Source: a virus (lineage: Duplodnaviria > Heunggongvirae > Uroviricota > Caudoviricetes). From it: 28,313 nucleotides of DNA. Shown one piece after another: positions 1-22,864 of this stretch. Position 1 is the first letter of the stretch. Every line of letters begins with the position of its first letter. Location: positions 1-28,313 of IMG/VR virus record IMGVR_UViG_2721755712_000003; one strand, written 5' to 3'. The position numbers were made by a program, and so were the translations under genes. Below the pieces are notes generated by a model. The model saw only the letters and a list, made by a program, of their open reading frames with translations, did no database searches and was not told the DNA's origin.

Positions 1-996
1 TTAACGAACCAGCCAGACCAGCATCAGGATAATCGCGACTAACAGTATCCACAGCGCGGGACGCGTTGCCATATTTTGCAACGTGTCCATCATCGGTGGA
101 AAAGGATTAAGCAGCGGTTGCATAACACGCGGATCAATCCCTTTAACCCGCCGTTGATAAAGCTGATTAAGAATATCCTCGGCCTGGGCAGAAGAAAGCG
201 ATGATTGCGCAGAAAGACCATATTTTTGCTGGATATATGCCGATAACGCCGCCAGTTCACTGGCATCTAAAGGTTGTTTTAGCGTCATCTGTAGTGATTC
301 CAGCGTCGGCGTATTTTGCTGGCTTAGCGTCTGACGCGCCTGTAGCCAGGTCACCAGATGGTTAAACAGTTTCGCTGGAATTAACTCGCCATCTTTCACC
401 CCGGAAAGTTCCAGCATCGATTGCCAGATCTGTTTGCTGGGTTCCCCCGTTGCCGCCGCAAGTTTGGTCACCAGCTGTTTTAGCGCATTGTGCTCCGCCG
501 GTAATAAAGGACGGTCGGTCGCCTCGCGCTGCTGTGGTTGCGGAATAACCATCTTCCCTTCCTGCAACAGGGTGAGAATGGTTTTTAATTGCTCCGGTGA
601 GAGCTGATTCAGCGGCGTCTGACCAAAGTTATGACGGATATAATCCGTGACCGCCTGACGATTATTCCCCAGACGTAAATACTCCCCTAATTGCGCTAAA
701 AGCTGGCGGGCAGAATGGCTTTTTTGCGCGGCCAGCAGACGTTGCGCCAGATTATGCTCAGCGGCAGGGAAGTGACGCGAAAGCAGCGGTGAATCTCCCG
801 ACAGACCAATATCGTGCCTGATACCCGCCCACAGTTCTGCTCTTTGCTGTTGCGTCAGTGAGGTCACTTTCGTCATTAAGCTTTCCAGCGAAGTACGTTG
901 CTGACTGGATAAAGGCTGATTGCCCGTGCCAGACGGCAGATTATCTCCCTGACCTGGTGGTTGCCCAGGAGGAGGGCCGGAAATAGGTTGTATCAT
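1..996 (-). CDS. hypothetical Pro/Gln-rich protein with C-terminal transmembrane anchor (probable host flank gene)
   Basis: 331-aa ORF, ATG at 994-996 with AAGGA SD 9 nt upstream, stop at 1-3. N-terminus PPPGQPPGQ low complexity; C-terminal hydrophobic stretch ALWILLVAIILMLVWLV. Family not recognised. Confidence 0.5.
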   Translation of the reverse strand: MIQPISGPPPGQPPGQGDNLPSGTGNQPLSSQQRTSLESLMTKVTSLTQQQRAELWAGIRHDIGLSGDSPLLSRHFPAAEHNLAQRLLAAQKSHSARQLLAQLGEYLRLGNNRQAVTDYIRHNFGQTPLNQLSPEQLKTILTLLQEGKMVIPQPQQREATDRPLLPAEHNALKQLVTKLAAATGEPSKQIWQSMLELSGVKDGELIPAKLFNHLVTWLQARQTLSQQNTPTLESLQMTLKQPLDASELAALSAYIQQKYGLSAQSSLSSAQAEDILNQLYQRRVKGIDPRVMQPLLNPFPPMMDTLQNMATRPALWILLVAIILMLVWLVR

Positions 997-1195: not shown

Positions 1196-1233
1196 GATAA
1201 CACAAAGCCCGTTTTCACGGGCTTTGTGTTATC
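1196..1233. terminator. perfect 16-bp inverted repeat hairpin (GATAACACAAAGCCCG, loop TTTTCA); possible bidirectional terminator or island boundary
   Basis: Read directly: arm 1196-1211 is the exact reverse complement of 1218-1233. Sits between the 1..996 gene and the AT-rich islet. No clean U-run, so terminator function is inferred. Confidence 0.35.
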
Positions 1234-1245
1234 TGTGATTGTGGC

Positions 1246-2156
1246 TTAGCCGCATGATTTATACTGTTTCCAGTTACAGGCTTCTTGAAGCGGTTTTAGC
1301 GTGGTTGACAGGCCGTTTAAATTGAAAGTTGCACTTACAGGGCTTTCATTATAAGGGGTTATTTTTGCATACATTTTGTTTGAGTTGGCTAGTTTTCTGA
1401 TGAAGTTAATGTCATTGCCTTTATAAAAAACAGCCTTTGTATCTGTAGATACTAGCCAGTTTCGCTCAACTGCTTTCTGTTTATCAAGGCGATACAGCAT
1501 GCTGGTTTGTTCAAGGCCTAAATATACATCCCAATTAAGAAATACTTCGGTTTTCTTTTCTCGGCAAGCTATAAACAGAGTAGGGGTAACCGCTTCTCCA
1601 AATGGAGTTCTTATATAATCATCACTTTCTAACGATAAAATTACATTTTTCGAATCATCAATTGGCGATGTAGTAATGGATGTGTGCCATTTTCCTGTGT
1701 CTGTGGCTTTCTCTAATTTTGATTTAGATTGCGCAACTTTTTCCTGTGGAAATGGTTTATCGTAGCAGTTTATTCTAGTTTCTTTATCGTTTTCTGCTCG
1801 GCATTTAGATATCTCAGAAAGATTTGGTTGCTGAGCCTCTGTTGTTACTAGCTGTTTCGCTTTAGATTTTGAGCTTACAGGCGGAGTAAATGTTGGAGAA
1901 AAAAACGGTCATAACAAGATAAACGTCTGTCATCATCTTTCTCATCAGGGCATTGATCTCTGCTTTCGAATTTTTCAGCAACTGTCGTTCGAGTCGGTTG
2001 TATTGACTTATCATAACAAGAAAGTCTTTCTTTATTATTTTCTATTGCTCGGCACTGGAGTGATGACTTAAAGTTATTATGCTCAGTTGCTGCGTGAGCA
2101 GGTAGCACACTAATTGATATAAATGATGCACCTATAGAAATAATCATATTTTTCAT
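1246..2156 (-). pseudogene. frameshifted gene for a secreted Cys-repeat protein (signal peptide plus three C-x(6-9)-[RK]-[LI]-x-C-Y-D repeats)
   Basis: ORF 1875..2156 (signal peptide MKNMIISIGASFISISVLPAHA, repeats ...KERLSCYDK and ...RRLSCYDRFF) stops at 1875. Reading open in the +1 frame from about 1903 encodes a third repeat (RINCYDKPF) and continues into ORF 1246..1500. The frame switch lies at an A7/T7 homopolymer (1898-1906). AT-rich. Confidence 0.55.
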
Positions 2157-2579: not shown

Positions 2580-3001
2580 TTGATTAGCTGGTATAGAGTG
2601 AGACAGGATGCCTTATCGACCTTACTCTGGCAACTGATTGACGGGGGATTGCTCCCCCGTCGCGGTTTCCTTACTGCTTACACTGTAAGAACGCCGCAAA
2701 CTCCGCTCCCCAGAAACTCATCCGTATTTCACACAGCGAACCGTGCAGCATCCAGATGATGAGGATTGCCGTCACGCAGAACGTGATGGCCGTAAGCGAT
2801 TTTTGCGACATAGCACTTGCTCCTTTTCCGGAGAGGCGCTAACCTTTCACTTGTCAAGGTAATGCGGTTAGGGCCTCGGTTAAACAGATATGTTTTCCGG
2901 GGCCTTTCCACATCCGGCCTTCGGGTATTCCCTCCGACCATCAGCCGAAAGGCACCCGCACGTAATCTATCGCTTTTTTGTTACTCCGGCAATTCTGCCT
3001 G

Positions 3002-3262
3002 TTAATCCTGAGGTAAAGGCAAACTCATCTGATTGTTTCCCCTGTGTGAAGCTGGCAGCTCATGCCACGGGATACCTTCTGATGAGTGAACGCCGGAGGC
3101 GTGTTTCGATGTGAATTTATGGAAAGCTTCCAGTGTTGAGAAGCATACGCCGCATTCCAGATTGTTACACTGGTAATACTTTTGCCGCACGGTGTTTGAA
3201 TCATTTTCCGGACGACTGGTGCGGATACGGGCAGATGCGCCACAAAGCGGACAACGGAACAT
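3002..3262 (-). CDS. ogr: Ogr/Delta-type zinc-finger late-gene transcriptional activator
   Basis: 86 aa, MFRCPLCGASARIRTSR...YYQCNNLECGVCF with the C-x2-C...C-x4-C arrangement typical of P2 Ogr. GGGAGG SD before ATG at 3260-3262. Confidence 0.9.
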   Translation of the reverse strand: MFRCPLCGASARIRTSRPENDSNTVRQKYYQCNNLECGVCFSTLEAFHKFTSKHASGVHSSEGIPWHELPASHRGNNQMSLPLPQD

Positions 3263-4149
3263 AGCGACCTCCCTTAACGTGGTGCTGCCGCTATTCTAAG
3301 TTGCTCACTCTGTTTCCGCTATCCATTCCGGGATTTTTGCCTCAAGCTCAAGCTGCGTGGTAAAGCCGCTGTTATCAATGGTGTGCCCGGCTTTTGCAAT
3401 AATCCAGTCCTGATTATCAATCTCGCTTTTAAATCCTGTTACCGTGCCATGCATTTCGGGGTAGAGCTCTGCACGTCCACGCGCCAGCGTGATGGAGAAT
3501 GATGCGGCTCCGCGTTGTAGTTGCTGCCACTTTGCCGCCGCTGCGCGTCTTGCTGCCTGCTCGTTCTGATAAGTCTTGCGTAACACAAACACATTGCCTT
3601 CCGCGCCTTCCATATAATCACCTTCACGGCTGCTGCTTTTCTCCTTTTTGGGTTTTGGCGGTTTACGGCGTTTCACGCTGACTTTTTTCTTTTTCCCGTA
3701 ATTAAGATCAAGCCAGTAGGCGCGTACCCCCGTATACGCCTCGCGGTCAGCAATGCGGAACTGATGGCGATCGCCGCTGCTGCGTGTAATGGCGAACGAG
3801 GGCAACGGCTGGCCCTGTGCGTTCACGCCACCACCTGGCATGATGAATAACAGATTGCCGCTTTTTACCGTGGTGATTGCACCCAGCATTTCCGCCATGC
3901 GCGTAAGGAAGGACATGTCGCTTTCTTCGGTCTGGTCGGCGTGGTCGATTTCGATATCCATCAGCATTTCGCTGATTTGCGGTTTCAGACCATACCGATG
4001 AGCGATGGCGGATACCACACGCTCAACGGTCACATCATGCCAGGACACCTCACGTTTAACGTTAAATTCATCCCAAAAATCTGCGCTTCTGGCTGAAACA
4101 GTCAGCCTGTCCGGCGGTCCTTCGTGAGCGATTTCATCAACAATGTAAG

Positions 4150-5370
4150 TGTAGATTCAATTGGTCAACGCAACAGTTATGTGAAAACATGGGGTTGCGG
4201 AGGTTTTTTGAATGAGACGAACATTTACAGCAGAGGAAAAAGCCTCTGTTTTTGAACTATGGAAGAACGGAACAGGCTTCAGTGAAATAGCGAATATCCT
4301 GGGTTCAAAACCCGGAACGATCTTCACTATGTTAAGGGATACTGGCGGCATAAAACCCCATGAGCGTAAGCGGGCTGTAGCTCACCTGACACTGTCTGAG
4401 CGCGAGGAGATACGAGCTGGTTTGTCAGCCAAAATGAGCATTCGTGCGATAGCTACTGCGCTGAATCGCAGTCCTTCGACGATCTCACGTGAAGTTCAGC
4501 GTAATCGGGGCAGACGCTATTACAAAGCTGTTGATGCTAATAACCGAGCCAACAGAATGGCGAAAAGGCCAAAACCGTGCTTACTGGATCAAAATTTACC
4601 ATTGCGAAAGCTTGTTCTGGAAAAGCTGGAGATGAAATGGTCTCCAGAGCAAATATCAGGATGGTTAAGGCGAACAAAACCACGTCAAAAAACGCTGCGA
4701 ATATCACCTGAGACAATTTATAAAACGCTGTACTTTCGTAGCCGTGAAGCGCTACACCACCTGAATATACAGCATCTGCGACGGTCGCATAGCCTTCGCC
4801 ATGGCAGGCGTCATACCCGCAAAGGCGAAAGAGGTACGATTAACATAGTGAACGGAACACCAATTCACGAACGTTCCCGAAATATCGATAACAGACGCTC
4901 TCTGGGGCATTGGGAGGGCGATTTAGTCTCAGGTACAAAAAACTCTCATATAGCCACACTTGTAGACCGAAAATCACGTTATACGATCATCCTTAGACTC
5001 AGGGGCAAAGATTCTGTCTCAGTAAATCAGGCTCTTACCGACAAATTCCTGAGTTTACCGTCAGAACTCAGAAAATCACTGACATGGGACAGAGGAATGG
5101 AACTGGCCAGACATCTAGAATTTACTGTCAGCACCGGCGTTAAAGTTTACTTCTGCGATCCTCAGAGTCCTTGGCAGCGGGGAACAAATGAGAACACAAA
5201 TGGGCTAATTCGGCAGTACTTTCCTAAAAAGACATGTCTTGCCCAATATACTCAACATGAACTAGATCTGGTTGCTGCTCAGCTAAACAACAGACCGAGA
5301 AAGACACTGAAGTTCAAAACACCGAAAGAGATAATTGAAAGGAGTGTTGCATTGACAGATTGAATCTACA
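4150..5370 (+). mobile_element. IS30 insertion sequence, complete (1221 bp), flanked by 2-bp target duplication AG
   Basis: Left end TGTAGATTCAATTGGTCAACGCAAC at 4150; right end is its imperfect inverted copy (22 of 25 matches) ending at 5370. AG at 4148-4149 and 5371-5372. Length equals canonical IS30. Confidence 0.95.
4212..5363 (+). CDS. insI: IS30 transposase
   Basis: 383-aa ORF MRRTFTAEEKASVFELWKNGTGFSEIANILG... recognised as the E. coli IS30 transposase (HTH N-terminus, DDE core). Confidence 0.95.
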   Translation: MRRTFTAEEKASVFELWKNGTGFSEIANILGSKPGTIFTMLRDTGGIKPHERKRAVAHLTLSEREEIRAGLSAKMSIRAIATALNRSPSTISREVQRNRGRRYYKAVDANNRANRMAKRPKPCLLDQNLPLRKLVLEKLEMKWSPEQISGWLRRTKPRQKTLRISPETIYKTLYFRSREALHHLNIQHLRRSHSLRHGRRHTRKGERGTINIVNGTPIHERSRNIDNRRSLGHWEGDLVSGTKNSHIATLVDRKSRYTIILRLRGKDSVSVNQALTDKFLSLPSELRKSLTWDRGMELARHLEFTVSTGVKVYFCDPQSPWQRGTNENTNGLIRQYFPKKTCLAQYTQHELDLVAAQLNNRPRKTLKFKTPKEIIERSVALTD

Positions 5371-22497: not shown

Positions 22498-22674
22498 GGT
22501 GTGGCCTCTTTGGTTGTAAGTTTTGAAAACTCACCATCCAGAGCTGCGAAACTGTGGGTGGCGAGACGTACGGGGTTCGCAGTACCGGCAACCAAAGAAC
22601 CCGGCCCGACCGAAGTCGGCCCCGTACGCCCCGCCATAATTCTGACGCGAAAAAAACGTGGCAATACAGTACGC

Positions 22675-22702
22675 ACAAAAAAACCGCTGGCGCGGTTGTG
22701 CG
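22675..22702 (-). terminator. intrinsic terminator (hairpin followed by T7 on the minus strand)
   Basis: Minus-strand RNA reads CGCACAACCGCGCCAGCGGUUUUUUUGUGCG; the T-run is the complement of 22675-22681. Lies downstream of the SPFH gene. Confidence 0.55.
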
Positions 22703-22864
22703 CTTTGGTTGTCAGCAGGCTGCGAAACCCGGCACCCGTTTTATGAGGTGCAGCGAAAATGTAACCTGACTGATTGCGGCATGGCAAGCGGTTTTTTTGT
22801 GAGAACGGCATACTAAAAAATCCTGATACTGCTCCGGCCAGCGGTTTGCACTGGCCGGGTGTCA

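Follow-up and report, generated by a model that had tools for sequence, protein, structure and literature searches.

The window, that is, the whole stretch of 28,313 nucleotides analysed here, carries in order flk, a split gene, a zinc-ribbon gene, hok/gef, ogr and P2-type tail genes (Table 1). The locus is the cargo end of a P2-like prophage, which was inserted between flk and pdxB. The split gene resembled tagO and was located on the minus strand. Its upstream partner was intact and encoded a protein of 110 aa with an N-terminal zinc ribbon and, by eye, a hydrophobic C-terminal half. The match of this protein to PF13240 (24.5 bits) was just below the cut-off, and the protein fell in PHROG 6586, a family without an assigned function. 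The stop codon of the partner gene was found 4 nt before the ATG of the tagO-like gene, and therefore the two genes are probably co-transcribed.

The zinc-ribbon and VasI-like genes formed a tight two-gene cargo module beside the hok/gef and ogr end of P2-like (Xuanwuvirus-type) phages. The intact cassette was also present in Escherichia phages 500465-2 and PhiR44_2, Citrobacter phage Shae_phiSM and Xuanwuvirus P884B11. No anti-phage defence annotation was obtained for the cassette: PADLOC gave no match, and the PHROG families had no assigned function. An Rfam scan detected no RNA family near the tagO-like gene, and the promoter and terminator scan of the same surroundings gave nothing beyond the shuffle expectation. 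A near-perfect inverted repeat, CACAAAGCCCG...CGGGCTTTGTG, was located between the convergent flk and tagO-like genes and was conserved in every aligned allele; it is probably a bidirectional terminator or a marker of the prophage end.

Other elements of the prophage were observed at a distance from the cassette. A C4 antisense RNA (87 bits) and an isrK Hfq-binding sRNA (66 bits) both scored above the Rfam gathering score and were adjacent to each other in the prophage early region. No Sok or hok-mRNA family reached the gathering score within the window. An IS30 element was inserted in the prophage gpD gene (late control/tail). The best complete-genome matches covered only 95% of the first 25 kb, and therefore IS30 was absent from this gpD site in all 5,426 complete genomes of E. 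coli. The prophage of the window's lineage was degraded: in strain F5656C1, over the region equivalent to about 5800–28000 of the window, PGAP annotated the terminase large subunit, replication endonuclease, baseplate J and tail-fibre genes as partial. A fragment of the prophage end was also found on 9–11 large plasmids (87–165 kb) of human diarrhoeal E. coli isolates, where a group II intron adjoined it. On plasmid p120899_146, the fragment comprised a partial gpD, ogr, hok/gef, the zinc-ribbon gene and the tagO-like gene with the same T7 tract as the window.

Table 1. Coordinates of the features described in the window
Feature	Position	Strand	Basis or remark
flk	1-996	-	
Inverted repeat between flk and the tagO-like gene	1201-1229		near-perfect; conserved in every aligned allele
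3' continuation in the -1 frame, 220 codons, stop 1246-1248	1246-1908	-	translation; opens after TGA 1909-1911
CAG in place of the TAG stop of every intact allele	1264-1266	-	alignment; 6-aa extension QYKSCG
5' fragment ORF, 93 aa, from ATG 2156 to TAA 1875-1877	1875-2156	-	ORF translation
Overlap of the two open frames, 31 nt	1878-1908	-	bounded by stops 1875-1877 and 1909-1911
T7 homopolymer (A7 on the plus strand)	1899-1905	-	1-nt deletion relative to T8 of intact alleles; sequence reading and alignments
Upstream partner gene, intact, 110 aa	2161-2493	-	N-terminal zinc ribbon; hydrophobic C-terminal half (by eye)
hok/gef toxin ORF	2671-2811	-	ORF
ogr	3002-3262		
IS30 in prophage gpD	about 4149-5369; transposase ORF 4212-5363	+ (transposase ORF)	sequence
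C4 antisense RNA	22554-22641	-	Rfam
isrK	22677-22751	-	Rfam

Intact alleles of the tagO-like gene encoded 297 aa. Residues 118–296 of the intact protein matched the Pfam VasI family PF11319 with 87.6 bits against a gathering score of 26.5, and the score to the NCBIfam VasI equivalog TIGR03360 was 72.6 bits, below the cut-off of 124.2. No relative with a solved structure was found by sequence below E = 0.1. Some type VI secretion clusters encode TagO/VasI as an accessory protein, which has no known function (PMC13584744). The C-terminal 180 residues of the intact protein fit PF11319, and the N-terminal CYD motif is common to both. However, the intact protein differed in having three CYD motifs, a long linker and a sub-equivalog score. 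The genomic setting was also different: no type VI secretion cluster was found around the gene, whose neighbours were flk, the zinc-ribbon gene, hok/gef, ogr and the P2-type tail genes. The VasI of the cassette is thus an orphan, outside any T6SS cluster, and belongs to the cargo of P2-like phages.

In the window, this protein was divided between two reading frames. The 5' fragment began with a Sec-type signal peptide, MKNMIISIGASFISISVLPAHA, cleaved before A (by eye), contained two RLSCYD motifs and gave a weak match to the VasI N-terminal motif (PF11319, 27.8 bits). Its 3' end consisted of seven out-of-frame residues, LQHLLRL, followed by TAA. The 3' frame carried the remaining CYD motif, the third, together with the entire VasI domain (PF11319, 56.3 bits); it had no signal peptide and offered no ATG, GTG or TTG start before the ATG at 1500. 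The frameshift fell at codons 84–86, downstream of the signal peptide and ahead of the VasI domain.

The initial annotation had reported that the signal-peptide ORF ends at 1875 and that the reading continues in another frame, and both parts were borne out by the ORF running from 2156 to 1875 and the continuation from 1908 to 1246. It had placed the continuation in the +1 frame, open from about 1903; the frame is actually −1 (equivalent to +2) in the direction of translation, and it opens at 1908. The homopolymer had further been described as the only place where both frames are open. Both were open over 31 nt, and a single-nucleotide change at any of these positions could join the two ORFs. 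The lesion was assigned to the homopolymer because intact alleles were compared, not because the frames overlap there.

On the plus strand the tract read G1898, seven A residues (A1899–A1905) and C1906. The intact 894-nt alleles of complete genomes were collinear with the window in alignment, and the single exception at this place was T8 against the T7 of the window. The alleles of strains ATCC 43896, IHE3034 and Z1323HEC0300 were 98, 91 and 89% identical to the window, respectively. The earlier assignment of the frameshift to the A7/T7 run therefore held, since the intact alleles have T8 at the same spot. In the intact gene, T8 (nt 252–259 of 894) was the longest homopolymer and made up 0.9% of the gene length. 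It was embedded in CGT TTT TTT TCT, which encodes Arg-Phe-Phe-Ser at codons 83–86. A/T runs of at least seven nucleotides were found only seven times in the 28.3-kb window. The location of the lesion in the run cannot be ascribed to chance, because T8 is the longest run, occupies 0.9% of the gene and suffered the same loss on at least five backgrounds. Judged by these alignments, the window gene is a T8 allele minus one nucleotide in its longest homopolymer.

The reality of the lesion was assessed by a census, in which short probes spanning the tract were compared with 5,426 complete E. coli genomes. A total of 237 copies were found, comprising 44 with T7, 127 with exact T8 (122 + 5) and up to ~65 with an interrupted tract. 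The T7 short-probe blast cannot distinguish T8 from a TTC-interrupted allele, an ambiguity that was removed by probing with T8 and by direct reading of two loci. The copies fell into two flank types. Forty of the 45 window-type copies were exact T7 by a 67-nt probe (31 chromosomal and 9 on plasmids), spanning at least two independent lineages, and the other five were T8. The second flank type (the T-allele group) numbered 192 copies, including 122 exact T8 and 4 exact T7. An exact T9 match was absent from these 192 copies, and all five non-T7 window-type copies were T8. In PLSDB, 11 of 11 plasmid copies had the tract length of the window. The exact 93-aa truncated product was recovered from 270 public contigs (NCBI, ENA and Logan assemblies), and the intact alleles were far commoner than the T7 products (at least 1000, 776, 426 and further contigs for individual alleles, amounting to thousands).

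A sequencing or assembly indel was one of three interpretations offered by the initial annotation. Under-calling of homopolymers is the commonest long-read error, and some singleton T7 calls, as well as the T6 and T9 Logan contigs, could be errors. The allele of the window, however, recurred unchanged in 40 complete replicons of many laboratories and in 270 independently assembled contigs of different sources, with the 11 PLSDB plasmids in agreement, and it co-segregated with linked substitutions, namely a stop-loss and A100. The lesion is therefore real, and an assembly error was rejected; as an account of the window allele it can be practically dismissed.

A scan of one genome per species returned a single locus, an E. 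coli phage contig in a Planococcaceae MAG, and thus offered no view across species. In this 4.2-kb contig (DEQA01000038.1, 'Planococcaceae bacterium UBA3378'), the tagO-like gene showed no differences from that of IHE3034 over ~0.9 kb. Mis-binning of, or contamination by, E. coli sequence almost certainly accounts for this contig.

The T8 to T7 change was not confined to the window's clade. According to the neighbour-joining tree and the alignments, T7 occurred on at least five separate allele backgrounds. The first is the clade of the window. The second is a window-type lineage on a long branch that keeps the TAG stop (allele L041; product P0004, 51 contigs). The third comprises strains H1 and 504211, whose repaired allele equals intact alleles, so that one T is the sole difference. 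The fourth comprises DEC5A and an IMG/VR contig (L044), and the fifth is an 89%-type allele of Z1323HEC0462 (P0017 and P0019). Six different 93-aa products with six N-terminal backgrounds, all ending in RFFLQHLL[R/H]L, were found on 270, 51, 22, 53, 57 and 7 contigs. Other tract lengths were very rare, with T9 on four and T6 on two short Logan contigs. In the O55:H7 strain DEC5A and in the IMG/VR contig of the fourth background, a second homopolymer deletion (T6 to T5 at codons 5–7) was present besides the T8 to T7 deletion.

In E. coli, indel rates rise exponentially with homopolymer length (PMC8510543), and the repeated T8 to T7 change fits this dependence. The tract is a recurrent, deletion-biased hotspot owing to its length alone. 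The five or more parallel events could nevertheless reflect selection for loss, beyond neglect. Under adaptive gene loss, parallel T8 to T7 changes would be fixed by an advantage in some hosts, and the homopolymer would merely supply the commonest null allele. The recurrence of at least five independent identical nulls, several of them common (270, 57, 53 and 51 contigs), and the movement of the T7 allele onto large plasmids of human diarrhoeal isolates are consistent with such an advantage. However, the hotspot by itself explains why the same lesion recurs, the intact alleles are far more frequent, and the size of the T7 clades may only mirror clonal expansion and the sampling of clinical strains. 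We consider adaptive loss very improbable.

The T7 lineages accumulated further changes after the frameshift. In the window's clade, the TAG stop of every intact allele was replaced by CAG; this stop-loss was limited to that clade, and the independent T7 allele L041 retained TAG. All six substitutions that varied within the clade were non-synonymous. They included C47Y in an invariant CYD motif, found in the plasmid copies, and L135P beside the third CYD motif, found in the window. Relative to the nearest intact allele, the ratio of non-synonymous to synonymous changes was ~20:4 in T7 lineages and 22:17 between intact nearest neighbours (Fisher p = 0.03), a contrast built on small counts from lineages that are not fully independent. 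The excess on the T7 lineages is suggestive of relaxed constraint. The 3' frame contained no further stop over its 220 codons, which is expected by chance because only ~4–6 substitutions have occurred since the frameshift. At codons 129 and 135, all four combinations of V/I129 and L/P135 were observed among the T7-clade alleles (the window, the copy on p120899_146, and L038–L040), which would imply recombination or repeated mutation inside the clade.

These features resemble those of frameshift pseudogenes in E. coli and in decaying prophages: a defined lesion relative to intact orthologues, consisting of a 1-nt loss in the longest homopolymer, clonal inheritance, secondary lesions (in small counts) and a degraded prophage. 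A genuine inactivating mutation, as proposed in the initial annotation, was upheld, since the intact orthologues have T8 or an interrupted tract, and the lesion has been inherited and followed by a stop-loss and non-synonymous changes. The window case differs from ordinary frameshift pseudogenes in being unusually recurrent (at least five parallel events) and in the spread of the null allele to plasmids. It also differs in annotation, as PGAP gives two CDSs in the window's lineage and not a pseudogene. In RefSeq genomes identical to the window, a 188-aa 'TagO' CDS (1246–1812, minus strand) starts from an ATA codon at 1812, and the 93-aa part is a separate 'hypothetical protein' in the window's lineage, carrying no pseudogene label. 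For strains 504211, H1, DEC5A and Z1323HEC0462, this lesion is already described as 'frameshifted' in RefSeq.

The third interpretation in the initial annotation was a slipped-strand switch, in which cells of a population would gain or lose expression of the exported VasI-like protein as the tract alternates between T7 and T8. The tract is slippage-prone and lies inside the ORF, where its length sets the frame: T8 gives an ORF of 297 aa, and T7 gives the 93-aa stub and an orphan VasI frame. The change from T8 to T7 has occurred at least five times, and the rare T9 and T6 products on Logan contigs add two further lengths. In this respect the gene is like the contingency loci of Haemophilus, Neisseria and Campylobacter, where the length of an intragenic poly-G/C run sets the frame of a gene for a surface or exported protein. 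It differs from them in that the tract has only eight A/T nucleotides, is not conserved and is broken by TTC in a common allele, and in that its changes are almost all −1 and clade-stable, with no T9 found in complete genomes. Eight A/T nucleotides are few compared with known homopolymer switches, and E. coli has functional mismatch repair.

Two kinds of evidence bear on whether such a switch is maintained. The first is the conservation of the tract. An allele with the tract T3CT4, in which TTT is changed synonymously to TTC and the gene remains intact, was read directly in two complete genomes (L016 and L017), would also account for the blast signature seen in up to ~65 complete genomes, and was present in 9 of 26 IMG/VR contigs. 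In addition, two homologues at 61–66% identity encoded RFFS as CGA TTC TTC TCT or CGC TTC TTC TCA. The R-F-F-S peptide is conserved but the homopolymer is not; therefore, the tract is not maintained by selection, either across the alleles or across these homologues. The initial annotation had itself taken intact orthologues with a different tract, beside reads of uniform A7 length, as the mark of a fixed pseudogene, and such orthologues exist.

The second is reversion. Frequent two-way changes of tract length among close relatives were not found in the complete genomes or the Logan contigs. The window-type T7 persisted across the chromosomes of several lineages and the 9–11 plasmids, with ~0.5% divergence in the plasmid copies, and was retained in all 40 exact copies and 270 contigs. 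Sampling of the window's T7 clade yielded no T8 allele, and the nearest T8 alleles were several substitutions away. Revertants were also sought by building the hypothetical repaired proteins and looking them up by exact sequence in public assemblies. One Logan contig, ERR13669448, encoded a repaired protein of 303 aa that combined T8 with the clade-specific stop-loss, V129 and P135; its DNA equalled the T7 allele L039 except for T8, and it stood as one contig against several hundred T7 contigs. The simplest reading of this contig would be a T7 to T8 reversion, the alternatives being an assembly error or an unsampled ancestor, and reversion may thus be occasional. The candidate revertant favours a switch, whereas the stable inheritance of T7, the absence of exact T9 from the 192-copy group, the restriction of the five other window-type copies to T8, the interrupted and missing tracts, and the stop-loss and non-synonymous changes gathered by T7 lineages all speak against it. 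We regard slipped-strand phase variation as quite unlikely. Of the three interpretations first offered, inactivation was therefore supported, an assembly indel was refuted and an on/off switch was weakly supported: the proneness to slippage stood, and the two-way change and the conservation did not.

Another possibility is that the T7 allele is leaky, so that −1 ribosomal slippage or an added U would rescue it and the lesion would be a knock-down, not a knock-out. The zero-frame codons CGU UUU UUU CUC form an in-phase U_UUU_UUU heptamer, a perfect X_XXY_YYZ, and after a shift of −1 the reading goes on with UCU CCA ACA, exactly like the intact alleles. The wild-type R-F-F-S-P-T junction would be restored if the ribosome slipped by −1 or if RNA polymerase inserted one extra U, and the frame beyond it has stayed open over 220 codons. 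The heptamer and the restored junction are also the likenesses to programmed −1 frameshifting, as in dnaX (A_AAA_AAG) and the transposases of IS elements.

However, the elements that accompany such frameshifting were missing from T7. No 3' stimulatory structure was predicted, the fold of the 99 nt downstream being no better than shuffles (MFE −12.6 kcal/mol, z −0.39), and no GGAGG-like Shine-Dalgarno stimulator was seen by inspection in the 30 nt upstream. In E. coli, the U_UUU_UUU heptamer shifts far less readily than A_AAA_AAG, and the runs for which productive slippage in transcription has been described are of 9 A/T (reviewed in PMC5009743). The T7 run is shorter than the ~9 or more A/T of that review, and differs likewise from the transcriptional-slippage rescue of poly(A) genes in endosymbionts. 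The two-ORF arrangement was not conserved, as most alleles and homologues were single ORFs; it is derived and in the minority, and the post-frameshift substitutions appear unconstrained. As there is no stimulatory structure, the T7 allele is expected to yield at most a trace of full-length protein. Rescue by recoding is very unlikely. A composite account is very unlikely as well: a slow rheostat, with T8 to T7 common and T7 to T8 rare, joined to a low trickle from −1 slippage and to selected parallel knock-down in certain E. coli lineages.

With good confidence, we conclude that the window gene is probably a heritable loss-of-function frameshift pseudogene that arose from slippage in an incidental T8, and not a maintained switch. 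The following course of events is proposed. Replication slippage would have removed one T from the T8 that encodes Arg-Phe-Phe-Ser in a dispensable prophage cargo gene. The frameshift would leave a 93-aa stub, containing the signal peptide and the first two CYD motifs, apart from the VasI domain, and that domain would then lack both an export signal and a start codon fit for use. The functional product is presumably lost, because the signal peptide is split from the VasI domain and the 3' frame has no start codon. The run itself would be an accident of codon choice, a hotspot through its length only. The T7 allele would then have been stably inherited, spreading with a P2-like (Xuanwuvirus-type) prophage at the flk locus and also through the prophage fragment captured on large plasmids. 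Since then, the gene would have drifted as a pseudogene, and the prophage around it is decaying as well.

The frameshift is an ordinary finding and matters little beyond annotation. The 93-aa and 188-aa CDSs of RefSeq are the halves of one frameshifted gene, for which a single pseudogene annotation is due. The case is a clean natural example in which an 8-nt run arising from codon choice (Arg-Phe-Phe-Ser) gives the same null allele repeatedly, and in which the null allele hitch-hikes on a prophage and on plasmids. More interesting than the frameshift is the cassette itself, in which P2-like phages combine genes for a zinc-ribbon protein and an exported VasI-like protein.
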